A stretch of DNA of 64,000 nucleotides, taken from the NCBI GenBank assembly GCA_016699595.1, contig CP064982.1, positions 203,647 through 267,646 on the forward strand. Direction: 5' to 3'. The notes under the pieces are model-generated. The model was given only the letters and a program-made list of their open reading frames with translations, was not told the DNA's origin and made no database searches. The translations under genes and the position numbers were made by a program. Shown here one piece after another: positions 416 through 58,039 of this stretch; within the stretch, counting starts at the first letter, position 1, and each line of letters starts with the position of its first letter. This stretch comes from a bacterium (GTDB lineage Bacteria; Patescibacteriota; Dojkabacteria; GCA-016699595).

Positions 416-1687
416 TTATCTTCCCGTTTTTGCTTTTATCTCTTCTTTCATATTCAAAACTCCAGGTTTATTCAAAATCTCTTGTGCTGGTTGCAAAAGT
501 TCTACAAAGTAATCAGCTACTGCAATTTTCAAATCTACGGGATGTAGTTTCTTTGCTAGGAAGTCTTCTTTCAAAGTTGCAAAATCAGTATAGGTCAGAT
601 CACCCCCCCATTCTAATTTTCTTTTTATTTCCAATTTCTTATTTAATTTTGATTTTGGATTATCAAGTTTGAAAATAATCTTGTCACACCAGTCAAGTAT
701 AGGGTTGAGAGTATCATCACCTTCGGGACAATAAGCATTTCTTAGCTTGCTTCTGATTTCCTCTTCGTTCTCATCCATGAAAATTGCAGTACTTGCTTTG
801 CTTTTACTCATCTTAATTTCCGTTGCAGAGATTTCCTCGCCTTTCTTGACCTTCTGGAGCGTTTCAGTTGATGGTGCTTGCAATCCAAGTATCAATGCAT
901 GGTGTATAGCAACAGGTTTGAACCCCAATTCATTTCCTACATCTATTGCAATTACATGTATTTTTCTTTGATCCATACCTCCGTGGACAATTTTGTTGTC
1001 CATAAAGAAGATGTCTGCAGCTTGAAGTGGAGGGTAAATCAGACTTGCGAAGTTCACAACCTCCCCTTCAGTCCTACCCATGATATCTATACTTCGTTGA
1101 ATTCTTGCAAGTGTTGTGTTTTTACTGACTTTTATAAGAGTTTCCCAGTATGTAAGTGGAGATAGAACTTTATCTTGAGCAACTTTCCTGTTTTGTGACT
1201 CTGTCACTAAGACATCCTCCCTTGTGAGGGAGGCATTTAAATTATTAGGAATTTTGTCAGGATTATTTTTATAATATTCTCCACTATAAAGTTCAGATCC
1301 TGTTATAAATTCAAGTGGATTATCTCCATCAAGCTGAACGCCAACGCATTTTGCTCCAGCAATCATATATTCTTTGAAAAGTCCAACTCCGGTATTTTGA
1401 ATCAATTCCCAGTCTCCACCAAGTTTTCCGTTGATCCAAGCATGCCAATCTGCAATGAAAATTCTACAGTGAATGCCAAGTTTTTGAAGTTCTTTTATAA
1501 CCATCATACCTAGTATCCCATGCCCAATGTGTGGTCTACCTGAAACTTCGTAGCCTATATAATGATAAACTTTTTCACCGTTTGCAATTTGATTGAGAAG
1601 TTCGGCAAGTCTATCTTCTCCAAGTATTTCTTGAGTTAATGATTTTAGAGTTGTAAGATCTTTTGACATTATTATTGATTGTAGCAT
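416..1687 (-). CDS. tyrS: tyrosyl-tRNA synthetase, archaeal/eukaryotic type, with a ~100 aa internal insertion
   Basis: Class I motifs PHIGHG (HIGH) and KMSKS. The C-terminal block AYCPEG...EWGGDLTYTDFATLKEDFLAKKLHPVDLKIAVADYFVELL matches the euk/archaeal TyrRS anticodon-binding region (AFCEPG...KWGG...HPGDLKN). Stop is TAA. Confidence 0.8.
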   Translation of the reverse strand: MLQSIIMSKDLTTLKSLTQEILGEDRLAELLNQIANGEKVYHYIGYEVSGRPHIGHGILGMMVIKELQKLGIHCRIFIADWHAWINGKLGGDWELIQNTGVGLFKEYMIAGAKCVGVQLDGDNPLEFITGSELYSGEYYKNNPDKIPNNLNASLTREDVLVTESQNRKVAQDKVLSPLTYWETLIKVSKNTTLARIQRSIDIMGRTEGEVVNFASLIYPPLQAADIFFMDNKIVHGGMDQRKIHVIAIDVGNELGFKPVAIHHALILGLQAPSTETLQKVKKGEEISATEIKMSKSKASTAIFMDENEEEIRSKLRNAYCPEGDDTLNPILDWCDKIIFKLDNPKSKLNKKLEIKRKLEWGGDLTYTDFATLKEDFLAKKLHPVDLKIAVADYFVELLQPAQEILNKPGVLNMKEEIKAKTGR

Positions 1688-1950
1688 GTTTATATGCTTG
1701 ACAATTTATTTAGTGCTTACTGATTAGTGTTTAGTGATAGTTTCAAAGTGTATAAAAATGTAAACTAACTTTTGTTCAAATAGTGTAACTCTTGTAAATT
1801 ATTTTATACAAATTATTAAGTATCAACAAATCTTTTGCTAAATTCATAATTAATTTGTGTAAATTGTCTTAAAGGATCACTTTTGAACTTCTTGGTTTGT
1901 CCATAAACAGGAAAAATTTGCTTCGTTGAGACAAACTAGCAACAAGTTTT

Positions 1951-9658: not shown

Positions 9659-9682
9659 AAAAAAATCCCGCAGTTGCGGGAT
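9659..9682 (-). terminator. rho-independent terminator downstream of the 9732..10136 gene
   Basis: On the minus strand: GGATCCCGCAACTGCGGGAT hairpin (8-bp GC-rich stem) followed by TTTTTTT. Confidence 0.55.
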
Positions 9683-9731
9683 CCTTAGTCTCAACATAGT
9701 GTAGTCGAGCTACCGACTATATTCGATTATA

Positions 9732-18471: not shown

Positions 18472-21400
18472 TTAAATAACTATACTAACAATTCTACCTT
18501 TGACATAGATAAACTTTTTGATTTCTACCCCTTGCAACCATTTAGCTATATTCATATCTTGCATAACTTTTTCCTTCAAACTTAATTCGTCATCATCTAC
18601 ACTCAACTCAAGCTCTCCCCTTAGCTTTCCATTAACTTGTACACCTATTACCATCTTCTCTTCAGATATAAGTTTCTCATCCCAAGTTGGCCAATTTGTT
18701 TGATGAATACTAACCTCTTCAGTCTCGCTTAGATCAACAGATTCCACAGAAGAAGCAATATTAATTGTTAAATTATTGTATATTTCATCAGTTATGAATG
18801 GTGCAAACGGTGCAAGTAATTTCATGTAAGTCAAAAAGTCATCAATTGAAATAGTCATACCTTCTTGTTCAATCAAGTTTTGGAACTTCATAAACTCAGC
18901 AACACAAGTATTGAATTTCAATTCCGGAATGTTTGTAGTTACATACTTGATCAATTTCTGTAATTCTGCTTTGACTTTTGGAGTTGAGACATAGCGTACC
19001 ATTTTAATGACTGGCAAATAATGAACATTATCTTTCAACATATACTTGTCTTCTCCACATTCTACAAACCCGAATTTTCGGTAAAGGTTAATCGCATTGT
19101 TTCCACTAACTACCTCAAGATACAAATCATGAATTGCAAATTTAGTTATTATAACTTCCATAGCAACACCTCCAATTCCTTTAGCTCTAAAATCTCTATC
19201 TATGTATAGAACTAGTTTCCTATGTTGATTTTTATCTTGAGATAGAAAGCTACTTAACCAACCTATAACTTTTCCTTCTGATTTAATTGTTAAACTGATT
19301 TTTCTGTTGGAATTTGCAAACCTTGGAATAATGTTTGTTAAATCGGTACTTTCATCAGGAACTATCATTCCTTGAATATTTTTTAGAATTTCTATATCAA
19401 TTCCAGTTTCAGGACTTATATTATTATCATACCAACCTTCAACTTGAATTCTTCTGGCATCTCTAATTTCAGATTCTTTTATTGATTCAAAAGTTAAATT
19501 ATATTTTTGAATTACTTCTTGAGCCTTTTCTGAATAACTATCTTTGACATTAGTATTTCCCAATTGTTCAGCAAAATTCCAAACTCTATCAATATATCTT
19601 CTCACTCCAACTACGGTTTCTTCGCTCCAATTCTTGCTTTGCTCAAGCGGACCCATAAACATTTCATAAACACGCAATGTATCAGCACCATACTTCTCAC
19701 AAACTGTGCTAGGATTCACGATATTTCCCCATCGCTTGCTCATCTTTCTACCATCAGGACCTTGAATCATGCCTTGATGTCTCATTTTATAAAAAGGTTC
19801 GGAATAATTTATCAATCCTTTGTCAAAAAAGTATTTCGTAAAAAACCTAGAATACATCAAGTGCAAAACTATATGCTCTGGACCAATCATATATAGATCT
19901 GTTGGTAACCAAGCATTACAAAGTTCACTATCAAAAGCCTTTGTATCGTCATTTACTGACATATATCTCATATAATACCAGCTTGAATCTATAAATGTAT
20001 CGAGAGTGTCAAATTCAAATCGAGAGCCTACTCCGTAAAGTTCTTCAGCTAATTTTTTGTAACTTTCTGAATATGCAATTGGAGATTCTCCAGTTGGTTT
20101 AAATTCAACATCAGTTGGAAGTTTGAGTGGTAAATATTTTTCATCAACTGGTTTTACAAAGTATTTTTTACCATCAAATGTTACTTCTTTGAGTTCATTA
20201 TAATCTTTGTTTTGGGAATTATCCTCAGTGACAGGAATGTAAACTATTGGAATTGGACAACCCCAATATCTTTGTCTTGAGATCAACCAATCACGAAGTC
20301 GATAAGTTATTTTTGTGCTACCTATTCCAAGTTTTTCAAATTCTTTTATAATCCTTTTTTTAGCTTCAGGAACAGTTAGTCCATTCAATATATCTGAATG
20401 GATCAATCTTGAATTTTCATCATCTGTCAAAAATGGAAGTTTCTCACACCTATCAACTTCACACTCACAATTATCCTTGCAGTTATTACAATTAGGATTA
20501 TTACAGCCGAGATTTCCTTTTGCATCTATTCGTTTTATGACCTGAACTATATCACATCCGTATTTTGTTGCAAACTCAAAATCTCTTTCATCATGAGCAG
20601 GCACTGCCATTATGGCTCCGGTTCCATAAGTATTTAGTACATAATCTGCAACAAATATGGGAATTTCAGCTTTTGTCATTGGATTTATAGCCTTTATACC
20701 TTTCACTTCAACTCCTGTTTTTTTTATTTGAGATTCTCTTTCCAGTTGAGATTTCAACTTTGCTTGATTTTTATAATCTATAATGTCTTGATTATTAGTT
20801 ATAAAATCTTGCATTTCAACGAGCATAGCATGCTCAGGAGCAATTACCATAAAAGTTGCTCCATAAATTGTATCTGGGCGAGTCGTGAAAACTTTGAGAG
20901 TATTTCCATCGTTAGAACCTTCCGCTTCCGTCACCTTCCTAGAAGGAAAGATTTGAAACTCAACTTCTGCACCTTCAGATCTGCCTATCCAGTTCTTTTG
21001 TGCAGCTTTTGTGCTCTCTGGCCAGTCAACTTCATCCAAATCTTGGTAAAGTCTTTCAGAATAATTCGTTATCTTCATAAACCATTGTTCCATATCTTTT
21101 TGAAGAACTAAACTTTCACATCTTTCACACTTTCCATTTATAACTTGTTCGTTTGCGAGGACTGTTTGACAGCTAGGACACCAGTTTACAGGAGCATTTG
21201 CTCTATATGCTAAACCATCTTTGTACATTTGCAAGAAAATCCATTGAGTCCATTTATAGTAGTTTTCCCAATGAGCAGCAAGTTCATGAGTTTCCCAGTC
21301 TGTAGAGAATCCGACCAAATCTAGTTGCCGTTTGAAATTACTTATGGCTTCTTGTGTTGTTGTATTTGGATGAATACCAGTTTTTATAGCATAATTCTCG

Positions 21401-21660
21401 GCAGGTAGCCCAAAACTATCCCAACCAATGGGCAATATTACTTCTTTGCCACGCATTCGTTCAAACCTAGCTAAAATATCAACCGGATTGAAGCAATACA
21501 TATGACCTACATGTAGTCCATAACCAGAAGGATAAGGCAAGGCAACAAGTGCATAATATTTATCTTTTTCTGACTTTAGGTTTGGCTTATAAAGTCTTTG
21601 TTCTTTCCAAACTTCTCTCCATTTGGAGTCAATTTGTTGGTGTGGGAATTTGTTTGTCAT
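18472..21660 (-). CDS. leuS: leucyl-tRNA synthetase carrying an in-frame GNAT acetyltransferase domain insertion (about aa 701-898) and a Cys-rich insertion in the editing region
   Basis: HIGH-type PYPSGYGLHVGH and KMSKRWGN. A complete GNAT motif A/B (LYIDRDFRAKGIGGVAMEVI...VVSGNNAINLYRKFGF) sits between the catalytic core and the anticodon-binding ELKFNTCVAEFMKFQN...LAPFAPFITDE. 1062 aa. Confidence 0.9.
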   Translation of the reverse strand: MTNKFPHQQIDSKWREVWKEQRLYKPNLKSEKDKYYALVALPYPSGYGLHVGHMYCFNPVDILARFERMRGKEVILPIGWDSFGLPAENYAIKTGIHPNTTTQEAISNFKRQLDLVGFSTDWETHELAAHWENYYKWTQWIFLQMYKDGLAYRANAPVNWCPSCQTVLANEQVINGKCERCESLVLQKDMEQWFMKITNYSERLYQDLDEVDWPESTKAAQKNWIGRSEGAEVEFQIFPSRKVTEAEGSNDGNTLKVFTTRPDTIYGATFMVIAPEHAMLVEMQDFITNNQDIIDYKNQAKLKSQLERESQIKKTGVEVKGIKAINPMTKAEIPIFVADYVLNTYGTGAIMAVPAHDERDFEFATKYGCDIVQVIKRIDAKGNLGCNNPNCNNCKDNCECEVDRCEKLPFLTDDENSRLIHSDILNGLTVPEAKKRIIKEFEKLGIGSTKITYRLRDWLISRQRYWGCPIPIVYIPVTEDNSQNKDYNELKEVTFDGKKYFVKPVDEKYLPLKLPTDVEFKPTGESPIAYSESYKKLAEELYGVGSRFEFDTLDTFIDSSWYYMRYMSVNDDTKAFDSELCNAWLPTDLYMIGPEHIVLHLMYSRFFTKYFFDKGLINYSEPFYKMRHQGMIQGPDGRKMSKRWGNIVNPSTVCEKYGADTLRVYEMFMGPLEQSKNWSEETVVGVRRYIDRVWNFAEQLGNTNVKDSYSEKAQEVIQKYNLTFESIKESEIRDARRIQVEGWYDNNISPETGIDIEILKNIQGMIVPDESTDLTNIIPRFANSNRKISLTIKSEGKVIGWLSSFLSQDKNQHRKLVLYIDRDFRAKGIGGVAMEVIITKFAIHDLYLEVVSGNNAINLYRKFGFVECGEDKYMLKDNVHYLPVIKMVRYVSTPKVKAELQKLIKYVTTNIPELKFNTCVAEFMKFQNLIEQEGMTISIDDFLTYMKLLAPFAPFITDEIYNNLTINIASSVESVDLSETEEVSIHQTNWPTWDEKLISEEKMVIGVQVNGKLRGELELSVDDDELSLKEKVMQDMNIAKWLQGVEIKKFIYVKGRIVSIVI

Positions 21661-22031
21661 GTTGATTTAATTGTTGTTTCAAAGGATTGAGTGATTTTTT
21701 GCCAAAATTTTTCAATAGTAGTTGTTTGATCTGATATTTCGAAATAAAAACCTACTTCATCGTTATGAAGCTTTATAAACTTTGCATCAGAGGCAAAAAC
21801 TTCCCTGTTTAGCTTGTCAAAATCTTCTATAGTAGTAATTTGTTTAAAAGTATCTTTTACTATACCAAGGTCGTCAAAGTTATTGTTCAAAGTTTGTTGC
21901 ATAATACTTACTATTTCTTTTGATGTGCAGCCAATTATTGATTTCATCTTTTGCTTTTGGCCCATAGTTGTTCGTATATAAAAAGATGGTTTTGGAGTAA
22001 TGATTTTTTGAATTTTTTCTAATATACTCAT
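21657..22031 (-). CDS. hypothetical protein (124 aa)
   Basis: ATG-to-TGA ORF whose TGA overlaps the leuS ATG (ATGA). Confidence 0.4.
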   Translation of the reverse strand: MSILEKIQKIITPKPSFYIRTTMGQKQKMKSIIGCTSKEIVSIMQQTLNNNFDDLGIVKDTFKQITTIEDFDKLNREVFASDAKFIKLHNDEVGFYFEISDQTTTIEKFWQKITQSFETTIKST

Positions 22032-30905: not shown

Positions 30906-32765
30906 TTGAGCCTACTTGAGAAAAACGAACTAGATACTGCGAGTTATATCAAAATAGTTAGAAAATATAGTCGAGATGGAAATTCAACATTCAGCAAAGA
31001 TGACATATTGAAAGAAATTGATGTATTGCTAAGGGTAAAAGGTGAATATTGCTTCCTTGGGGAAGCTGGCGAGCGAAGCGAACCTGAAGGGGTTTTGAAA
31101 AACGAATTAGAATCTCTCAAATCTGCAATCAAACTCAAACCAATGCGAACTGAATCAGGAGTTACTACAGTTACGGTTCTGACTAAACCTTATGCTTGCC
31201 CTGGACAATGTATATTTTGTCCAAATGATGTTCGGATGCCAAAAAGTTATATCGCAACTGAACCTGGAGCTCAAAGAGCTCTGATGTTCAGGTTTTCTCC
31301 ATACGCTCAAGTTTGGAATAGACTTAAAGCTTTGCAAAATATAGGTCATCCAACCGACAAAGTCGAAATGCTTGTACTTGGTGGAACTTGGACGAGTTAT
31401 AAAGAAGATTATAAACTATGGTTTACTTACAATCTTTTCAAGGCTATGAATGATTTTGGAGATGGAATTTGTGATGAGAGGTTAATGACAAAGCAAGATA
31501 TAAGTGAGATATTTGAAAATGATTTTAATGATGATATTAGGAAAAATTACTCCTTCACATGGGAAGGTGTCCAGCAAAGCAGGACAGAAGGGGTTAACTC
31601 TTTAATTGATAAAAGTAAAACTAATTTTATTGAATACAACAAACTTCTCCAAACTCAAGAATTTAAGGCGTGGGAAAAAGAAAATGTTGTTGCAGGAGAT
31701 TTTATGAATTCTCCTACATGGGAAATTTTGTTTGAAGAACAAAATCGAAATTCGAAAGGTAAATGTAGATGCGTGGGTTTAGTTTTTGAAACTAGACCAG
31801 ATAGAATTACACAAAAAGAAGTTTTGACTTTACGAAAACTTGGTGCTACAAAAGTTCAACTAGGAATTCAGATCCTAAATGATGAAATTTCAAGTTTGAA
31901 TAAACGAGGTGAGAATATTGAAGATGCTATGAAAGCTTTTGAATTACTTCGACTTTGGGGCTTTAAAATTCATGTTCATATGATGCCAAATTTACTTGGT
32001 GCAACTCCAAAGCTAGACTTGGAAAGTTATAAGTTACTCGTTAATGATCCTCACTTTCTTCCAGATGAAATAAAAATTTACCCAACAAGTTTGATTGCAA
32101 ATACTGAACTTGAGAATGAGTATAAAGCCGGAAACTGGAGACCTTATGAAACTCAAGAATTGGTTGAATTAATCGCTCAAATGATTGCAGAAACTCCAGA
32201 ATATGTAAGGTTAACTCGTATTATTCGAGATATACCAAGTCAAGAAATTGAAGCTGGAAATAAACTTACTAACTTAAGACAAGTCGTTGAGAAGTATATG
32301 CAAGATAATGATATGCAAGATCAAAATATCAGAGCAAGAGAAATTAAACAGGAAAAAGTAACTTTTGTCGATTTGGAATTGAAAATAGTTGAATATCAAA
32401 CTACAATTTCAAAAGAATTGTTTTTGGAATATGTAAAGCCCCCATTGAAAAAGGGGGGCAAGGGGGATTTTATTGCTGGGTTTTTAAGATTGAGTTTGCC
32501 TATTGATAATATTTCTGCCATGATTCGAGAAATTCATGTTTATGGTCCAAGTTTGGAAATTAGCAAAGATAGTTCTGGCGATGCTCAGCATCTTGGACTT
32601 GGGACTAAGTTGATTGAAAAAGCAAAAAAAATTGCGAAAGATTTGGGTTATAATAGCTTGAAAGTAATTTCAGCGATTGGAACTAGAGAATATTATGCCA
32701 AAAGAGGTTTTGAAATGACGGAAGATGGACTTTATCAATTGACAAAACTAAAAGTTAATTTCTAA
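30906..32765 (+). CDS. elp3: Elp3 family tRNA uridine(34) carboxymethyl-modification enzyme (radical-SAM domain plus C-terminal GNAT/KAT domain)
   Basis: Radical-SAM CxxxCxxC in ACPGQCIFCP, the Elp3 core (LVLGGTWTSY, FETRPDRIT), and a C-terminal GNAT fold (HLGLGTKLIEKAKKIA...YYAKRGFE). The TTG start is uncertain. Confidence 0.8.
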   Translation: MSLLEKNELDTASYIKIVRKYSRDGNSTFSKDDILKEIDVLLRVKGEYCFLGEAGERSEPEGVLKNELESLKSAIKLKPMRTESGVTTVTVLTKPYACPGQCIFCPNDVRMPKSYIATEPGAQRALMFRFSPYAQVWNRLKALQNIGHPTDKVEMLVLGGTWTSYKEDYKLWFTYNLFKAMNDFGDGICDERLMTKQDISEIFENDFNDDIRKNYSFTWEGVQQSRTEGVNSLIDKSKTNFIEYNKLLQTQEFKAWEKENVVAGDFMNSPTWEILFEEQNRNSKGKCRCVGLVFETRPDRITQKEVLTLRKLGATKVQLGIQILNDEISSLNKRGENIEDAMKAFELLRLWGFKIHVHMMPNLLGATPKLDLESYKLLVNDPHFLPDEIKIYPTSLIANTELENEYKAGNWRPYETQELVELIAQMIAETPEYVRLTRIIRDIPSQEIEAGNKLTNLRQVVEKYMQDNDMQDQNIRAREIKQEKVTFVDLELKIVEYQTTISKELFLEYVKPPLKKGGKGDFIAGFLRLSLPIDNISAMIREIHVYGPSLEISKDSSGDAQHLGLGTKLIEKAKKIAKDLGYNSLKVISAIGTREYYAKRGFEMTEDGLYQLTKLKVNF

Positions 32766-34449: not shown

Positions 34450-34625
34450 CAAAATACGCTAAAGCCCCACTGCGCTCTCGCTTCACTGCGTTACGCTCGG
34501 GTCATATAACACAGTATATGCGGTGAGAGCCTTGCAGGCTCTCACCCATATTCCGCTACAATTTTTAAAATGATAAAATAATGGTGTAGCGGAACATCGC
34601 ATATACTGGAACGTTAGGCGAAATA
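34450..34625 (+). repeat. GC-rich structured repeat R1, copy a (contains a perfect 10-bp hairpin GGTGAGAGCC/GGCTCTCACC)
   Basis: Shares ordered blocks with copy b at ~36860-37015: GCCCCRCTGCGCTCTC, then RTATAACACAGTRTATGCGGT, then a GC hairpin, then ACCCATATT, then ...AACGTTA. Local GC is about 50% against a ~30% background. Confidence 0.6.
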
Positions 34626-36859: not shown

Positions 36860-37015
36860 TTTGAACTCGCTCCTTTCAGTCGCGCCCCGCTGCGCTCTCC
36901 TCCCTTCGGTCGTCGGGGCGTATAACACAGTGTATGCGGTTCGGGGTTCGGCTCGCCCCTTACCCATATTTTTGCTCCCGTTGGTCGCAACTTCTCATAT
37001 CCGCAAACGTTATAT
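36860..37015 (+). repeat. GC-rich structured repeat R1, copy b
   Basis: See copy a; same orientation, about 2.4 kb downstream. Partial related fragments are at ~35178-35200 and ~35355-35385. Confidence 0.6.
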
Positions 37016-49223: not shown

Positions 49224-49330
49224 AACTTTTTTTGAGAGGTTGAATTATATTTGCAATATTTCCATGTTCAATTACAAAATGACTAACACCTTTAACTGTG
49301 TTTTTAATGTTTATACTTTTTTCATAACCT

Positions 49331-49372
49331 TCCGTCTCGCTCATAGCTCGACACCTTCCTAAGAGGAAGGAT
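49331..49372. repeat. member of a dispersed family of short GC-rich hairpin elements (CCGTCYCGC... + CCTTCCTAAGAGGAAGG)
   Basis: Related copies are at 53291-53325, 53723-53762, 54172-54196 (CCCTCCCGTGAGGGAG), 57361-57410 (inside mnmA) and 9659-9682. Confidence 0.5.
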
Positions 49373-50724: not shown

Positions 50725-53277
50725 ATGTCTACACCAAAACTTACAGCAGAACAGCAATATTTAGATCTGAAATCAAAATACCCTGATTGTATCTTATTTT
50801 TTCGTATGGGAGATTTTTACGAAGTTTTTGATAATGATGCTCGTGAAATGAGTAAAGTTTTAGGTTTAACTTTGACAAGTCGAGATAAAGGTGAGAAAAA
50901 ACGACCAATGGCTGGAATTCCACATCACGCGCTGAACCAATATTTAGGAAAAATTGTAAATTTAGGTTACAAAGTTGCAATTGCTGAGCAAATGGAAGAT
51001 GCCAAGTTTGCCAAGGGAATCGTGAAAAGGGAAGTTACAAAAGTTGTAACAGCAGGAACTTTGATTGACGAGAAAAATTTACAAGAACAAGAATCAAACT
51101 TTATTCTAGCTTTGAATTATTCTAAGTATAAAAACAGTATTGTTTGGGGTTTGAGTTATCTTGAACTTTCAACTGGAGAATTCAAACTTATAGAACTTGA
51201 AACTAGTCAAAATTATTTAGCTCAAAATAAACTACCAAGTAAAATAATTGACAAAATTTCAACTTTGCAACCAAGAGAAATATTACTTCCAGAAAAACTG
51301 AAGTACTTCCTTACTCCGATCATCCAAACAAGACTTACTTTGATCGAAGAATTCCAGTTTGACTTTGATATAAGCTATAAAAATATAATCCAACATTTCA
51401 AACTTGCAAATTTAGTTGGATTTGGTATTGAAAATTATAAAATTGCAATTGGTGCAGCTGGAGTTATATTGAATTATGTCAAAACTAGTGAAAAAACTGA
51501 ACTTAGCCATATCACAAAACTAGTTTTTGATAACTTTTCAGAAAATATGAATTTTGACTTTGCAACTATACGAAGTCTGGAACTTATTGAACCTATAAAT
51601 TTATCAAACTTAAATTCAGATAAACCTACTACTTTGCTTGGAGTTTTGGATAAAACTAAAACTCCGATGGGAAAAAGACTGATTCGAAGTTGGGTTTTGA
51701 AACCTTTGACAAATTTAGCTCAAATCCAAAATAGACTTGATAATGTCGAAAACTTTTTGAAACTAGATAATGATAATAAATTAGTTATTTCAAATTCGCT
51801 GGATAATATTTATGATATAGAGCGAATTTGCGGAAGAATTGGACTTCAAACAATTTCACCGAAAGATTTTGTAGCACTAGATGGTTCTATATCTGAAATA
51901 TTAAATTTAATTCAAACTTAAACTAAATTAAATTCTGAAAATAAGCAAGGCGAATTAAAAGAAGGTTTAATATTAAATAAATTAATTAAGTACTTTGATG
52001 AATTAAATATAATTAAAAACAAAATTAGCTCATCCCTACTTTCAAATCCAAGTTTTGAGATAAATCAAGGAAATATTTTTCAAGATAATTATAATTCTGA
52101 AATTGCAGAACTTCGAAATATTTCAACAAATTCAAAAGATTGGATATTAAATTATCAAGCAGAACAAATTACTCAAACACAAATATCAAACTTGAAAGTG
52201 AAGTTTAATTCTGTTTTTGGATATTTCATAGAAGTATCAAATTCGCAAACTTCAAAAGTTCCAGAAAATTATATCCGCAAACAAACTATTGCTGGGGGTG
52301 AAAGATATATAACTTCTGAATTGAAAGACATGGAGCAGAAAATCTTAACTGCAGATGAAAAGTTGATTGGTTTAGAAAAAGAATTATTTCTAAAGTTTAG
52401 AGAAGAATTTATACAACATATTCAAACTTTGCAAAAAGTATCACAAATTATAGCAGAAGTTGATACTTTATTTTCTTTTTCAGAAGTTGCAAAGGAAAAT
52501 AATTACACAAGACCTATATTTACTGAAAAATCGCAAGTACTAGCTATTACTTCAAATCGTCATCCAGTAGTTGAAAAACTAGTTGAAAACTTTACTTCGA
52601 ATGATTTAAATCTGAATAGTCAAAACTCAATGATGATTTTGACAGGTCCAAATATGTCTGGAAAATCCACATATATTCGGCAAGTTGCACTTTTAGCTAT
52701 AATGGCTCAAATTGGAAGTCTTGTTCCTGCTGAAAGTTGTGAGCTAAGTCTAGTTGATAGAGTTTTTACTCGAGTTGGAGCAAGTGATAATTTGTCAAAA
52801 GGTGAATCAACTTTCATGGTTGAAATGAATGAAACTGCAAATATTTTGAATAATGCGACTTCAAATTCACTTTTGATTTTAGATGAAATTGGACGAGGAA
52901 CTTCGACTTTTGATGGAGTTGCTATAGCTTGGTCAGTCATGAAGTATATTTACGAAAATCTGAAGTGCAGAACTTTGTTTGCAACGCACTATCTAGAACT
53001 TACTGAACTTGAGAAAAAGTATGATGGTATTTCAAATTATTCCGTTCAAATTGCTGAAAAAAATGATCAAGTGATTTTTATGCATAAAATAATTCCTGGT
53101 AAAGCGCAGAAATCTTTCGGGGTTCATGTTGCAGAAATTGCAGGAATGCCAAATGAAGTTATAAATAATGCTAAGGAAATTTTGAAATCTTTTGAAGATA
53201 GTCAAAATAAAGTCAAAAAGGTAGTAAATAAAAAAATAAATTCAGAAAAAATTCCTCAAATGGGATTGTTTGAGTAA
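50725..53277 (+). pseudogene. mutS: DNA mismatch repair protein MutS interrupted by one in-frame TAA at 51919-51921
   Basis: Track ORFs 50725..51921 (domain I, GDFYEVFDNDA) and 52192..53277 (ABC ATPase GPNMSGKST...DEIGRGTSTFDG) are in the same frame. The 270-nt gap between them translates without further stops into MutS-like clamp/lever sequence. Confidence 0.8.
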
Positions 53278-53342
53278 AATGATTTCTTTGAAAGTTGCTT
53301 TCCTGTTAGGAAAGCTCCCCGCAGGGGTGATAGGTTAAAAAC

Positions 53343-53762
53343 ATGATTGCAAAAAACAAACATATAATTTATAAACCAAGCATTAAGTTTGCAAGGCAGA
53401 ATAGAAAAATTATGAATAAGTATGAAGTTTTTGTTTGGGTAGCTCTGAAGATTCTGAATAAAAAGTATAGATACGGTTTTAGTAGACAAATTTGTTTTGG
53501 ACCATATATATTAGATTTTTATTCCAAAAAGTTAAAAACAAATATTGAAGTAGATGGTGAAACTCACGAATTTAGGGGTAATGAAGATATAATAAGGGAT
53601 GAATATGTAAAAAGATATGGAATAAAGATAATTAGAATAACAAATTCTGATGTTCTCAAATCATATAGCTTTCTTGATGAATATCTAAATCAAATTATAG
53701 TAAATTCTACTAACCTATCCGTCCCGCAAAGCGAGACACCTTTCCTAAAAGGAAAGGAATAA
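53343..53762 (+). CDS. DUF559 family (Vsr-like PD-(D/E)xK) endonuclease-domain protein, free-standing copy
   Basis: FSRQICFGPYILDFYSKKLKTNIEVDGETHEF...DEYVKRYGIKIIRITNSDV matches the DUF559 core (RQ.pIg.yIvDFy...l.IEvDG..H...D..R...L...G..viRf.n.dv). Bracketed by GC-rich hairpins at 53291-53325 and 53723-53762. Confidence 0.7.
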   Translation: MIAKNKHIIYKPSIKFARQNRKIMNKYEVFVWVALKILNKKYRYGFSRQICFGPYILDFYSKKLKTNIEVDGETHEFRGNEDIIRDEYVKRYGIKIIRITNSDVLKSYSFLDEYLNQIIVNSTNLSVPQSETPFLKGKE

Positions 53763-53767
53763 TTCAC

Positions 53768-54139
53768 CTATTGTCCCAATGCAACATTATTTACACTATC
53801 AACTTTGATACTTACAATTTTCTTGGAGACTTCTAGCTTCATATCACTTGCGAAATTTTGTAGATTTTCAATTGAAGATAAATTATATATCTTTGACTCT
53901 AATTCCTTGTTTTCGAGATTAAGTTTCACTTGCTGAGCTTGTAATTTTGTAATTTCCTCTCCTTTGGTTGCAAAAACAGCAAAAACAGACATTTGCATCA
54001 CTATCATCAAACTAAAAATTGCTATAGCAAGGCGTACGAGTTTGTGTTGGGCAAGTTGCTTTCTCTCGGTTTCTTTCCTTGTTTGTTCCTGAACTTTTCT
54101 TGGAATGAATGTTGTGTTGTGTTGAAAATAAAGTGACAT
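53768..54139 (-). CDS. ftsL: FtsL-like cell-division protein (single TM plus coiled coil)
   Basis: Sits downstream of mraZ-rsmH, has a TM helix LVRLAIAIFSLMIVMQMSVFAVF followed by a coiled coil. ATG at MSLYFQ. Confidence 0.55.
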   Translation of the reverse strand: MSLYFQHNTTFIPRKVQEQTRKETERKQLAQHKLVRLAIAIFSLMIVMQMSVFAVFATKGEEITKLQAQQVKLNLENKELESKIYNLSSIENLQNFASDMKLEVSKKIVSIKVDSVNNVALGQ

Positions 54140-54203
54140 TTTAAACTTTTTTCTTACCAATACTGACTTTTGTCGATCCCTCCCGTGAGGGAGATTATGA
54201 AAC

Positions 54204-55220
54204 TTACTTTTTTATTACGAATCTAAATTTTGCTGATCTTGATCTGTTGTTACTCTCAACTTCAATTTCATTTGGGATTATAGGTTGATCTTTCAGATCG
54301 TTGCCGATCAAACCTTGTTCCTCAAAGGATTTAAAAAAATGCTTTACAATTCTATCTTCACCAGAATGAAAAGTTACTACTTCAAATACTCCAAATTTAC
54401 CTAATACTTCAAATCCAGAACTCAACAATCCTTCTAAATTATCATATTCGCTATTTACAACTATTCTCAACGCTTGAAAAACTTTGCTATGCAAATTAAA
54501 CTTAACTGCATTATTTTTGCCAAAAGCAATATTTATTATTTCAACTAAGCCCCCTACTTTCAGATCCCGGTTGTCTTTAATTCTATCTTTTACCAGCTTA
54601 CAAAATTTGTAACTTCCTTTTAGATCTGCATACTTTTCAAACAGTCTCACTAACTCATCCACACTAGCCATTTTCAAAATATCCAAAGCCTTGACATTGC
54701 TGTTTCTATCTAATCTCATATCAAGTTCTTGATCTAAGTTTTGAAAACTAAATCCTGATTCATTATCAAGTTGATCAGAATTCAAACCTAAATCTGCAAC
54801 CATTCCTCTAATTTTTAAATTATTCAAAATATTATCTAGTTTCAAAAATTCAATAACTTCCTTTATTTTCGCAAAGTTCTCATTAACTAAGATTACTTCT
54901 AAGCCATTATTTAAAACCTTATAAATCAATATTTCAGATCTATTTATTCCGAAATACAATTTATCGACTAACTTAAATCCTTGCTTTTCTAATTCATTTG
55001 CAAAGTTTGAAATCGCACTTTGATCAAGATCAAATGAAATAAGAATATTCCCTAACCCACCCCGAGCTTCACTTACCCTTCCAAGGAGCGGCATTTTTTG
55101 CAATTTGCTAATTATACTTTGTGAATAACCACCTCCACCAAGCGTACAATCAATCCAAATCCCATTTTTTGAAAAATCAAGATTGTCAATTGCTTCTTTG
55201 AGCATTACAGGTATATGCAT
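54204..55220 (-). CDS. rsmH: 16S rRNA (cytosine1402-N4)-methyltransferase RsmH/MraW
   Basis: HIPVMLKEAIDNL...IWIDCTLGGGGYS (compare H.PVLL.E....L....IYVDGTFGRGGHS). Its start overlaps the mraZ TGA in a TGATG junction. Confidence 0.85.
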   Translation of the reverse strand: MHIPVMLKEAIDNLDFSKNGIWIDCTLGGGGYSQSIISKLQKMPLLGRVSEARGGLGNILISFDLDQSAISNFANELEKQGFKLVDKLYFGINRSEILIYKVLNNGLEVILVNENFAKIKEVIEFLKLDNILNNLKIRGMVADLGLNSDQLDNESGFSFQNLDQELDMRLDRNSNVKALDILKMASVDELVRLFEKYADLKGSYKFCKLVKDRIKDNRDLKVGGLVEIINIAFGKNNAVKFNLHSKVFQALRIVVNSEYDNLEGLLSSGFEVLGKFGVFEVVTFHSGEDRIVKHFFKSFEEQGLIGNDLKDQPIIPNEIEVESNNRSRSAKFRFVIKK

Positions 55221-55648
55221 CAGGATTTTATAACTTCAAAAACTTTGTTTGCTATTTCAGTTGAATTCATTTCATTCATTCTTTTACTCCATATTGTTTT
55301 GTCCCAAACTTCGACCCAATCTCCAAGTCCTACGAAATAAACTTCTTTTGTCAGATTTGCATAAGTTTTCAAATTTTCACTAAGCACAAATCTTCTTTGA
55401 CTATCAAGCTCAACTTCTATTGCAGAACCTATCAAAAATCTCCTTACATCTCTTACATCACTATTCAAAAATGGAACCGCTTCAAATTGTGAGATAAGTT
55501 TATTCCAGTTTTTGTCGTTCACTACGATCAAGCAATTATCATAGCCACGGGTCAAGATAAGTTTATTTCCAAGCTCATCGGAAAACTTTTTGGGCATAGC
55601 TATTCTGTTTTTGTCGCCAAGAATAGAATCTTGAGTTCCGATGAGCAT
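55220..55648 (-). CDS. mraZ: transcriptional regulator MraZ
   Basis: Two-repeat MraZ fold: RIAMPKKF...LILTRGYDNCL and RRFVLSENL...VYFVGLGD. Confidence 0.85.
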   Translation of the reverse strand: MLIGTQDSILGDKNRIAMPKKFSDELGNKLILTRGYDNCLIVVNDKNWNKLISQFEAVPFLNSDVRDVRRFLIGSAIEVELDSQRRFVLSENLKTYANLTKEVYFVGLGDWVEVWDKTIWSKRMNEMNSTEIANKVFEVIKS

Positions 55649-55821
55649 CACCACTTATCACCACTGGTAACCATTTTAGTAGTTTCTGAAAATGATGTCA
55701 AGAGAAATAATAGTTTTTTTGAAATTTTATTTTATTTGCAAAATGCAGTTCATTATAGTATAATTACTAAAATATTTTCTTTTTGCTATATGAAATTTAA
55801 TTCATATAGGATTTTTTAAAT

Positions 55822-56202
55822 ATGCTATATAAACGAAATAAAACCAAAAAATATTTTATGCCTGTAAGTGAAATATTTACGGATGGAGTTGATCAGCGAG
55901 AAAAAGAGGCGTTAAATCTCGCTTATACACATTCTGAGTTATTACGTAAGATATCTCAACCAGGAAAGGCATCTGGAAGTTCAATCAGAAATGCTGGGGT
56001 TACGTTAGATTCCTCTTTGATGTATTTACCTGAACACATGCATACTCTGATTAAACATTATTTGAAAGAGAATATTAATGATTTTGAGAAGAACTCGAAT
56101 CTTTCAGACTACCAAAAGCTTGTGACGAATTTGTTTGCGTTAGGTGCACATCTCGAAAAGGGAGACCCAAAAAAGATATACCAATTACCAGAAGGTTTTT
56201 GA
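55822..56202 (+). CDS. hypothetical protein (126 aa)
   Basis: Clean ATG-to-TGA ORF in a strand-switch region with slightly elevated GC. No motif recognised. Confidence 0.35.
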   Translation: MLYKRNKTKKYFMPVSEIFTDGVDQREKEALNLAYTHSELLRKISQPGKASGSSIRNAGVTLDSSLMYLPEHMHTLIKHYLKENINDFEKNSNLSDYQKLVTNLFALGAHLEKGDPKKIYQLPEGF

Positions 56203-56234
56203 TATGCAACAAGGGAGGATAATTTGAGATTTTG

Positions 56235-57848
56235 CTATTGAATTATCCCTCTTCCGAAGCAAACTTCGCCATTGTAGAAAACTGCACTTTGACCTGAAGA
56301 GATTCCACGAACTGGTTCTGCGAAGTTTAGCTCATTATTTTCTAAGTTTAATGTTGCTCGAACAGGTTTTGCTCTATAGCGAACTTCAACTTCAAGATCA
56401 ACCAACCCACCTCGTCCTTCGGACACTCCTCCAATGGAGGAGAATAATTTTGAATTTATGAAATGAAGGTTTTCAAGTTGGCAACTATTTTTATATAACT
56501 TCGGATTATCAGTTCCTTGAACTACATACAAAATATTTTTTTCTAAATTCTTGCTACTTACAAAATATGGTTTTTGATGTGGCGAAATTACTTTGATTTT
56601 ATTCAGACCTTCTCGTTGACCTATAGTATAAAATGCAATCCCATCATGCTCACCTACTTTAAGCCCACTGTCTTCATCTACTATAATTCCAGGTTTATAA
56701 GCGATATTATTCCTCAAAAACTGAGCAACATCAATATCTCCTATAAAACAAATTCCTTGAGAATCTTTCTTTGTTGCAATTGGAAGTTCAAACTCTTCTG
56801 CTAATTTTCGAACTTCACTTTTTTGTAAATGACCAATTGGAAATAGTGTTTTGCTAAGCTGAAATTGATTTAGATCAGACAGAAAATAAGACTGATCTTT
56901 GTTTTGATCCAAACCTTTTAGTAAAAAATATTCAACAGATTTAGATTGATTATTTACATTAGCAAATTCTACAGTTGGGCCTTCCTGATAAGGAGGGTAA
57001 ATTTCGCTTTGCGAAATTTGGGAGGTTAAATAATTTTTAATTTTAGTGCAAACAATTTCAAAATTATACTCTACATCATTACTTTCAAATCTTAAAACAT
57101 TTATTCCTAGACTATTTAAATAATTCGTTCTTACTTTATCATATTCTAAACCTTCAGTAGTAAAGTGTTCTGCACCATCAAGTTCTATTGCAAGATTATA
57201 TTTTGAACAATAAAAATCTACTATGAAATTTCCTATTGGTTTTTGTCTTGTAAATTTATAATTTTCTAGTTTTGATAAGAAGTCATACCAAAGATGATTT
57301 TCAGACCTAGTTGCTCGTTTGTGATGTCTATTTAATTTTGTCAAGTTTGTATTGTAATTAACCCACCGTCCCGCTTCGCTGTCCACCTCCCTTGACAGGG
57401 AGGCCACCAAATTTGGAGTGATATTGTCAGTACTTGACTTTACTCTTGCATAATGTCCTGTTGCGATCATATCAGCGTCTTCCTCTAATGCTCTATTTAG
57501 AAAAGTTCCAAACTTGATTTTACTATTGCAAAGTATATCTGGGTTTGGAGTTCTACCTGCTCTATATTCATCAAAAAAATAATTTACAACTTGTTCTCTA
57601 TATTCTTTTTCAAAGTTATATATCTTCATCTCAATTCCAAGTTTGTCGCAAACTAACTTCACATCTTCTACATCCTTTTCCCATGGACAATCAGTTTGAA
57701 TTCCAAAATCTTCACCTGACCAATTTTTCATGTAAACTCCAACTACATTATCTCCATTTGATTTCAAAAGTGCTGCAACTACTGAAGAATCAACTCCTCC
57801 GGACATTGCAACGAATATTGTTTTTTTGCCGCTGTCTATAACATTCAT
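56235..57848 (-). CDS. mnmA: tRNA-specific 2-thiouridylase MnmA carrying an in-frame ~170-aa insertion that contains a complete DUF559/Vsr-like endonuclease domain
   Basis: PP-loop SGGVDSSV, ATGHYAR, then the insert, then EYFLLKGLDQNKDQSYFL (canonical LRGLD.NKDQSYFL) and GICFIGD. The insert contains FTRQKPIGNFIVDFYCSKYNLAIELDGAEH...GINVLRFESNDV. Confidence 0.85.
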   Translation of the reverse strand: MNVIDSGKKTIFVAMSGGVDSSVVAALLKSNGDNVVGVYMKNWSGEDFGIQTDCPWEKDVEDVKLVCDKLGIEMKIYNFEKEYREQVVNYFFDEYRAGRTPNPDILCNSKIKFGTFLNRALEEDADMIATGHYARVKSSTDNITPNLVASLSREVDSEAGRWVNYNTNLTKLNRHHKRATRSENHLWYDFLSKLENYKFTRQKPIGNFIVDFYCSKYNLAIELDGAEHFTTEGLEYDKVRTNYLNSLGINVLRFESNDVEYNFEIVCTKIKNYLTSQISQSEIYPPYQEGPTVEFANVNNQSKSVEYFLLKGLDQNKDQSYFLSDLNQFQLSKTLFPIGHLQKSEVRKLAEEFELPIATKKDSQGICFIGDIDVAQFLRNNIAYKPGIIVDEDSGLKVGEHDGIAFYTIGQREGLNKIKVISPHQKPYFVSSKNLEKNILYVVQGTDNPKLYKNSCQLENLHFINSKLFSSIGGVSEGRGGLVDLEVEVRYRAKPVRATLNLENNELNFAEPVRGISSGQSAVFYNGEVCFGRGIIQ

Positions 57849-58039
57849 AAGTTTCAATAATTTACACAAAAATTATACCACTTCCATAGGGGTTTAACTT
57901 ATTTTAGATAAAGTTACAATATTTCTCAAAAAATGCTTGACTTATACCTCTTTTTTGGTACAATGACTTTGTCAACCAACAATATTGTCTTTGACTATGT
58001 CATTCGATGATATTGTAGTTGGAAAATCTTTGGTTTTTC

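Follow-up and report, generated by a model that had tools for sequence, protein, structure and literature searches.

This report concerns a free-standing gene for a DUF559 protein, and the hairpin-rich repeats that bracket it, in a 64,000-nucleotide stretch of a Dojkabacteria genome (assembly GCA_016699595.1, contig CP064982.1, positions 203,647 to 267,646 of the forward strand; the whole stretch is called the window below, has a G+C content of 32.3% and uses the standard genetic code). As the initial annotation had proposed, an open reading frame (ORF) for a DUF559 protein, a predicted Vsr-like PD-(D/E)XK nuclease of 139 amino acids (aa), lies between mutS and ftsL (Pfam E = 3.8e-16), with hairpins located both upstream of it and at its 3' end. 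These hairpins are parts of terminal inverted repeats of about 45 bp, each composed of three parts (A, B and C) of which the third is a mirror segment, and the gene with its repeats makes up an intergenic element of 461 bp (element 1, 53297-53757). A second DUF559 element, which the initial annotation had overlooked, lies within mnmA (Table 1).

Both ends of element 1 have the same order of parts when read inward from the two sides of the gene: hairpin A, a 2-nt linker, hairpin B and box C. The 5' arm of hairpin A is polypyrimidine and its 3' arm polypurine, and box C is a G/T-rich mirror repeat of the purine arm (neither an inverted nor a direct repeat of it). At the left end box C is followed after 7 nt by the start codon (TGATAGGT-taaaaac-ATG) and probably doubles as the ribosome-binding site, while at the right end the repeat covers the final 16 codons of the ORF. 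Folding of the two ends as single-stranded DNA gave two hairpins (z = -3.6 and -5.3), and in units folded in this way hairpins A and B formed and box C was left unpaired. No hairpin in 53100-54400 carries a T tail (0 terminator-like sites). Both DUF559 copies of the window score well above the Pfam PF04480 cut-off (59.3 and 87.4 bits vs 20.6) and retain the invariant residues D48, E59, D61 and H65 (alignment columns); the closest solved structure for DUF559 is 3HRL (match 2.3e-17). A close relative carries a copy of the element 1 gene with 96% identity at this locus, and a relative with 72% identity has the same ends in an unrelated gene context. A solo unit lies 2.7 kb from the latter, and its B hairpin matches that of the left end exactly.

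A DUF559 module within mnmA and solo units in the window

Element 2 contains no stops and keeps the reading frame of mnmA, so that its DUF559 domain interrupts the tRNA_Me_trans HUP domain (Pfam) in a loop of variable length between the ATGHYAR motif and the NKDQSYFL motif. The site at 57361-57410, which the initial annotation had listed as a related hairpin pair within mnmA, is indeed a full unit and forms the left end of this element. The domain shares only 31% identity with the free-standing copy; with DUF559 proteins from other bacteria its identity reaches 55-58%. The window MnmA most resembles the MnmA proteins of Candidatus Dojkabacteria, a lineage of the candidate phyla radiation (CPR), and among the 120 best MnmA homologues listed DUF559 was found only in the identical protein, the others being 334-393 aa long. 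An AlphaFold2 model of MnmA is confident for the core and uninformative for the insert (pLDDT < 50, shallow alignment). An intein or intron was rejected as the explanation of the insert: Rfam gave nothing for 53200-57500 at E <= 1, Pfam gave no intein domain in the 544-aa MnmA at E <= 0.01, and the insert, about 160 aa of which about 100 are DUF559, is too small for an intein domain.

A detector that requires an A hairpin and a mirrored box C within 8-30 nt gave nine hits over the window, eight of them real, against a mean of 0.6 in local shuffles (n = 20). The A stems of the eight units are 6-8 bp long and perfect or with one mismatch, and the mirror match of box C ranges from 6/6 to 8/8. Besides the two modules there are at least six further solo or decayed units, five of them translated within housekeeping proteins, and the ORF-less derivatives in the window are all solos. 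The intragenic copies share one unit frame and give peptides such as ..R(K/E)V.SEA.G... The leuS unit matches a 9-aa insertion relative to the LeuRS of T. thermophilus, the solo unit of mnmA lies in a region of variable length, and rsmH carries its unit in a stretch that exceeds the corresponding part of solved RsmH structures by about 46 aa. The TyrRS/TrpRS-like gene (416-1705, minus strand) encodes 429 aa and its match to a Pfam profile of 292 positions spans 362 residues, which indicates insertions, the partial unit being one of them. Two of the other sites that had been proposed as family members are in this set: the one at 49331-49372 is a full intergenic unit, while the one at 54172-54196 is related to the family but retains hairpin A alone.

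Table 1. Positions and composition of the features discussed (labels beginning with L are our own for loci outside the window)
Feature	Position	Strand	Details
DUF559 (Vsr-like PD-(D/E)XK) nuclease gene, predicted	53343..53762	+	Pfam; conserved D/E/D/H residues
Left terminal repeat, element 1	53297..53335	+	GCTTTCCT-gtt-AGGAAAGC / CCCCGCAGGGG / TGATAGGT; A GCTTTCCT/AGGAAAGC, CT linker, B CCCC-GCA-GGGG, C TGATAGGT
Right terminal repeat, element 1	53713..53757	-	minus-strand letters CCTTTCCT-ttt-AGGAAAGG / TG / GTCTCGCTTTGCGGGAC / GGATAGGT; A CCTTTCCT/AGGAAAGG, TG, B GTCTCGC-TTT-GCGGGAC, C GGATAGGT
mnmA, host gene	56235..57869	-	544 aa vs usual ~360; holds element 2 and one solo unit
Element 2, complete DUF559 element, 424 bp	56980..57403	-	in frame in mnmA, variable loop after ATGHYAR
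Left terminal repeat, element 2	57361..57403	-	A CCTCCCT/AGGGAGG, TG, B GACAGCGAAGCGGGAC decayed, C GGTGGGT; translated ..SLSREVDSEAGRWV..
Right terminal repeat, element 2	56980..57026	+	A CCTTCCT/AGGAGGG, TA, B AAATTTCGC-TTT-GCGAAATTT, C GGGAGGT; translated ..SQISQSEIYPPYQEG..
DUF559 domain in MnmA (aa 183-281)	57027..57323	-	Pfam 7.1e-25; catalytic residues intact
Solo unit in leuS, in frame	20917..20950	-	CTTTCCT-tct-AGGAAGG TG ACGGAAGC GGAAGGT
Solo unit in mnmA, in frame	56407..56442	-	CTCCTCC-att-GGAGGAG TG TCC-GAA-GGAC.. GAGGTGG; encodes ..SSIGGVSEGRGGL..
Decayed solo unit in rsmH, in frame	55055..55092	-	encodes ..LLGRVSEARGGLG..
Solo unit in Elp3-like radical-SAM/GNAT gene, in frame	31051..31090	+	GCTTCC-ttgg-GGAAGC TG GCGAGCGAAGCGAACC TGAAGG; N-terminal extension
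Solo unit, intergenic, between PALP-enzyme gene and glycosyltransferase gene	49327..49370	-	CCTTCCT-ctt-AGGAAGG TG TCGAGC..GCGAGAC GGAAGGT
Partial unit in TyrRS/TrpRS-like gene, in frame	~1181..1233	-	A CCTCCCT/AGGGAGG and B GTGAC-AGA-GTCAC intact; C decayed
Hairpin A remnant only, between rsmH and ftsL	54177..54192		TCCCTC-ccgt-GAGGGA; no T tail
mutS	50725-53277	+	
ftsL	53768-54160	-	in ftsL-rsmH-mraZ block
ORF-less facing pairs	L009 7890-8021; L012 6737-6842; L016 4074-4235; L027 5779-5884; L048 (two pairs); L068		
Tandem-unit regions	L191 2280-2520; L195 975-1278; L192 2154-2520		intergenic, upstream of DUF559
E. coli sapF-ycjD-fabI units	L085 2851-2886 and 3058-3093; L087 1932-1967		

Three further observations concern neighbouring or separate features of the window. 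The mutS gene is broken by a single in-frame TAA (51919-51921), a codon that is CAA (Gln) in a closely related strain (L098); this is either a nonsense mutation or a sequencing error, and the strain may be a mutator. Reading of TGA as a sense codon was rejected as an explanation of the split mutS because TGA ends 10 long ORFs and the stop in mutS is TAA. LeuRS (leuS 18472-21666, 1064 aa) carries a GNAT acetyltransferase domain (aa 783-867, window 19066-19320, minus strand) between its catalytic and anticodon-binding parts. Two G+C-rich intergenic repeats of about 95 nt (34463-34556 and 36880-36965, plus strand) with the common cores ATAACACAGTRTATGCGGT and ACCCATATT each lie upstream of a small ORF and have hairpins that differ by compensatory changes; the repeats have no Rfam match and the small ORFs no Pfam hit, and they may represent an undescribed structured RNA that is unrelated to the DUF559 units.

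Structure of the terminal units and their relation to BoxC/PIT/TM repeats

The mirror relationship between box C and the purine arm of hairpin A was assessed across loci. The match averages 0.844, compared with 0.745 +/- 0.006 for mirrors taken from other loci (200 permutations, maximum 0.763) and 0.752 for a direct copy. Canonical pairing of box C with the pyrimidine arm was rejected because a direct copy scores the same as the permuted background. The A-to-C code, counted over 161 high-quality units, is G to G in 764 positions (G to A in 47), A to A in 224, A to T in 151 and C to T in 46 (C to C in 3); G*GC, A*AT, T*AT and T*CG are the base triples of antiparallel triplexes of the purine motif, which use this code. 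The detection of units made no use of hairpin B, and a perfect B stem of at least 5 bp is present in 62% of them vs 3% of shuffled sequences, with 59 different arms. Its loops are mostly GNA triloops (GAA 32, GCA 13, GGA 8, GTA 6) with a closing C-G pair in 102/116. A GNA triloop closed by C-G is of the d(GCGAAGC) type, a very stable DNA mini-hairpin, and this loop type hints at folding as DNA rather than RNA. The linker after hairpin A is TG in 94/161 units. Pair counting on MAFFT alignments was set aside in favour of our own shuffle and permutation tests because MAFFT displaced the 5' arm of hairpin A (loop lengths are unequal). No Rfam family corresponds to the unit.

Parts A and C are the intrastrand triplex motif published as BoxC (Bergler 1992), PIT (Hoyne and Maher 2000) and TM or TMECO (Holder et al. 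2015, PMC4666352), a kind of repeat known since 1992 and recorded in hundreds of genomes. In these repeats, as in our units, a purine block is complementary to a pyrimidine block and is mirrored by a further, G-rich block. The repeats are multi-copy, are present in Enterobacteria, Cyanobacteria and other groups, and are associated with local rearrangement. Circular dichroism and nuclear magnetic resonance showed that oligonucleotides of TMECO adopt a triplex, 3610 TMECO were counted in 262 proteobacterial genomes together with many G/C-rich motifs in cyanobacteria, and TM loci are rearranged more than controls (all PMC4666352). The window units are a variant whose second loop falls outside the published loop criterion: in the window, as at most Clostridia loci, this loop is 10-22 nt long and holds the conserved mini-hairpin B, whereas the loops searched were 1-6 nt in ITxF and 0-10 nt in the PIT search (PMC4666352), so units with hairpin B would escape a search limited to 1-6 nt. 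The stems of our units are also shorter and richer in A/T, and most copies in the window are intragenic, whereas TMECO was reported to be 'always located intergenically' (PMC4666352). A further difference is that our units bracket DUF559: the published survey found no transposase, integrase or other mobility function near TM repeats and does not mention ycjD, fabI or sapF (PMC4666352), and our full-text searches of the open-access literature (DUF559, ycjD, Vsr-like with MITE, intrastrand triplex) found no report of a link between DUF559 and triplex repeats.

This link is also seen in E. coli, where ycjD, a DUF559 gene, has sapF and fabI as its neighbours. A reverse TMECO/BoxC unit overlaps the ycjD stop codon, a forward TMECO lies about 170 nt downstream, and the TMECO beside ycjD has exactly the A/C form. 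A degenerate duplicate of the 3' end of ycjD lies between the two units. TMECO is reportedly missing from Salmonella. The ycjD gene occupies one locus in 3345/5426 E. coli genomes; genomes without the match were rejected as examples of a clean empty site because efflux genes follow sapF in them. A stable position of this kind would suit a host structure-specific repair nuclease that processes the triplexes or hairpins of the repeats and is linked to them by regulation or hitch-hiking, the module then not being mobile. The Vsr-like fold is that of a repair nuclease, and TM units stall polymerases in vitro (PMC4666352). We nevertheless regard a host repair role as improbable, since it leaves unexplained why inverted units stand at both ends of the gene at a fixed distance in many phyla, why whole modules lie in frame in mnmA and in a cyanobacterial methyltransferase gene (see below), and why related modules occur in unrelated contexts.

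DUF559 genes and units in other genomes

DUF559 proteins of about 120 aa are widespread, and many predicted ones end in translated units (e.g. ..NPSPSPQGEG..). The association with units was surveyed in 79 DUF559 loci from species-representative genomes of many phyla, 77 of them testable for inverted repeats, and in a set of 82 loci that covers Clostridia, Cyanobacteria, Chloroflexota, Bacteroidota, Proteobacteria and CPR. At 53/77 loci the gene is bracketed by inverted repeats (z > 4.5 relative to shuffles), with typical alignments of 45-50 bp and identities of up to 50/51. In the 82-locus set, units in the canonical position and orientation are present on the left in 53, on the right in 49, on both sides in 37 and on at least one side in 65, and the density of high-quality units is 1.5 per strand-kb in the canonical flanks vs 0.053 elsewhere in the same loci (28-fold). 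The best DUF559 loci of independent viral contigs are flanked likewise in 16/24 cases, and three metagenomic DUF559 loci have the same A-B-C ends. The suggestion of the initial annotation that a REP-like family travels with the endonuclease gene is thus supported: the association extends to other genomes, and the hairpins lack the T tails of generic terminators.

The gene and its units stand in a tight register. The span from left to right unit has a median of 453 bp, with many loci at 443-455, and the right unit overlaps the stop codon. In 23/46 left ends the distance from box C to a start codon is -1 to 7 nt, and box C, which resembles GGAGG, probably serves as the ribosome-binding site in these cases. 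The two ends of one element are more alike than the ends of different elements. The Shine-Dalgarno (SD)-like box C near the start codon could be taken to mean that the hairpins are ordinary expression signals, a 5' leader and an intrinsic terminator, with the other sites being unrelated terminators, and one site that had been listed as a family member (9659-9682, also given as 9661-9686) is truly an ordinary terminator, with a hairpin and a T-run on the minus strand and no A/C architecture. That explanation, which the initial annotation had allowed for in calling the repeats 'terminator-like', is contradicted by the lack of T tails on the units, and we hold it to be very improbable indeed: the right end repeats the left in inverted orientation, down to an 'SD' box that is useless there, units lie within the coding regions of leuS, mnmA, rsmH and others, and ORF-less pairs and arrays exist.

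In Candidatus Falkowbacteria (L103, JAPLWA010000004.1, 5920-5975 and 6370-6425) the units on the two sides of DUF559 are 'outside-out', their C boxes facing outward, and the extra mini-hairpin is in loop 1 of hairpin A, not between A and C. One organism (L088-L091, 2303-2965) has gyrB and gyrA on either side of the DUF559 gene in each of the 21 contigs read, and upstream of the gene are two reverse units and one left unit.

ORF-less derivatives take several forms outside the window. Facing pairs of units of 105-160 bp lie near DUF559 genes, unit arrays are present in L018 and L069, and upstream of an identical DUF559 gene three, four or five tandem 63-bp units are present depending on the metagenomic sample, which is copy-number polymorphism of units in natural populations. 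Whole modules have also entered other reading frames: in an uncultured cyanobacterium (OY969811.1, L054 2381-5827) an N6-methyltransferase/type-IIG-like ORF of 1148 aa holds a whole DUF559 module in frame directly before its NPPF motif, together with several solos translated as ..SPSPSL(K/E/Q)GG.. and ..SPP(S/C)KEG(L/Q)GE.., and a Chloroflexia ORF likewise contains a DUF559 module in frame. Identical DUF559 genes with different defence-island genes next to them (Mrr/helicase, BrxA/GmrSD; L184 2340-2410 vs L186 490-530) have their homology breakpoint within the B hairpin of a unit, consistent with units being recombination hot spots. Identical DUF559 proteins (P0138, P0144 and P0217) were considered as candidates for one element in different contexts and rejected. 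For P0144 the upstream contexts differ and the breakpoints lie in B hairpins, which indicates recombination rather than a clean insertion; for P0138 the gene is always between gyrB and gyrA; an apparent split of gyrA is a 34-bp deletion unrelated to units; and an apparent 100-bp indel resembling an empty and a filled site is a run of N.

These dynamics bear on the possibility that the units spread by other means (host recombination, replication slippage or an unidentified transposase) and that DUF559 is a homing-type or passenger gene for which the units are the target and not the ends. The ORF-less facing pairs could then be empty targets, the copy number of arrays shifts while DUF559 is unchanged, and rearrangement breakpoints lie within B hairpins; moreover DUF559 is related to a homing endonuclease (PMC3424549), PADLOC gives a weak HEase hit, and E. 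coli has about 23 TMECO (PMC4666352) yet a fixed ycjD. Such a targeting role is unlikely in our judgement, although less so than the two other alternatives considered. It does not account for the tight register, with box C used for ribosome binding in about half of the left ends, the stop codon overlapped by the right unit and the span clustering at 443-455 bp, nor for the greater resemblance between the two ends of one element, nor for a solo that has the same B hairpin as the end of the resident element.

The module compared with known systems and its interpretation

Several known systems share part of this organization. Like the repetitive extragenic palindromes (REP) and their REP-associated tyrosine transposases (RAYT), the module has one small nuclease gene between two inverted structured repeats that are also dispersed as solos and clusters. 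It differs in that the enzyme is Vsr-like PD-(D/E)XK and not HUH/Y1 (Pfam finds only DUF559/MTES_1575) and in that the repeats have a mirror-repeat third segment and copies inside genes. The terminal inverted repeats and the multi-copy ORF-less derivatives with the same ends resemble those of transposons and their miniature inverted-repeat transposable elements (MITE). The palindromic elements found in frame in Rickettsia genes (PMC10969869) are likewise palindromic, lie in unrelated housekeeping genes and are translated as an extra peptide; they are about 150 bp long, whereas our units are 35-45 bp and differ in sequence, structure and host phylum, and here a protein-coding parent element can be identified, with one whole parent in frame in a gene. 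DUF559 and Vsr have been placed in one cluster with the homing endonuclease I-Bth0305I (PMC3424549), and Vsr and I-Bth0305I (PDB 1cw0, 3r3p) belong to the same fold family as the DUF559 structure 3HRL, with the catalytic D/E/D/H residues conserved. Unlike homing endonucleases borne by introns or inteins, the window copies have no Rfam intron match and no Pfam intein domain; unlike Vsr, DUF559 has no linked cytosine methyltransferase in the neighbourhood examined; and inverted repeats bound the DUF559 gene, whereas homing endonuclease genes are normally without them. Searches of the DUF559 proteins with PADLOC and NCBIfam gave only weak nuclease or DUF559 hits.

Across phyla, the gene and its units form one compact module bounded by inverted repeats; ORF-less relatives and arrays also occur, with differences between strains, and both modules and units have entered coding regions. 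We therefore favour, with moderate confidence, the reading that the hairpins are the ends of a compact mobile module of about 450 bp whose sole gene is a DUF559 nuclease acting on its structured ends. On this model the module would be a selfish mobile element, with solo and paired units as its non-autonomous derivatives, analogous to REP/RAYT or MITE/transposon pairs, and the nuclease would recognise and nick the folded ends. The ends would most likely fold as single-stranded DNA, with hairpins A and B and a triplex of C on A, and single strands would probably arise in replication or through supercoiling. Solos and pairs may be mobilised in trans or left behind, and copies inside genes would persist only when in frame in tolerant surface loops, as with the Rickettsia palindromic elements.

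Some of our observations weigh against a mobile module. No pair of empty and filled sites was found among the E. coli ycjD loci, the contigs with identical proteins or the elements compared with each other; there is no target-site duplication, the outer flanks being AAAG...CTTT or CTTG...CAAG; and an all-against-all blastn of the 82 elements gave only orthologous loci and no near-identical copies in different contexts within one genome. About 20% of the DUF559 loci of that set are without units, and the E. coli ycjD locus is fixed. The DUF559 frame is not preferentially open across the ends, and the idea that the elements are 'designed' for translation through their ends was rejected because this frame is no more open than the others; the in-frame copies thus look like survivors of selection. 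The mirror detector and the A-to-C code are of our own definition and the permutation controls rest on the same code, and triplex formation by the short, A/T-richer stems of this genome is unproven. We found no demonstrated activity for any DUF559 protein in the open-access literature. To our knowledge no transposase of this fold acts alone, and we know of no transposase family that includes DUF559.

A broader claim, which we advance tentatively and towards which we are if anything slightly sceptical, is that DUF559 with triplex-forming ends constitutes an unrecognised class of autonomous bacterial mobile element. If this is true, an element of about 450 bp would be the smallest autonomous mobile element known, and a Vsr-like nuclease would recognise folded single-stranded DNA (hairpin, mini-hairpin and purine-motif triplex) rather than duplex sequence. 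The element would be the long-sought agent by which BoxC/PIT/TM repeats have come to populate hundreds of bacterial genomes, a function would be found for the very widespread DUF559 family, and essential genes in the reduced genomes of CPR bacteria would be colonised in frame. The kind of repeat is itself known; what is new is the mini-hairpin variant, the in-frame intragenic copies in a CPR genome (including a whole nuclease domain in MnmA) and, most importantly, the connection of DUF559 with triplex repeats. DUF559 ranks among the commonest domains of unknown function in bacteria, and this connection joins two puzzles in one testable hypothesis, namely that YcjD/DUF559 would bind and cut TM units in folded form. 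After the palindromic elements of Rickettsia, the units of this genome provide a second independent case in which repeats inserted in frame remodel essential proteins.

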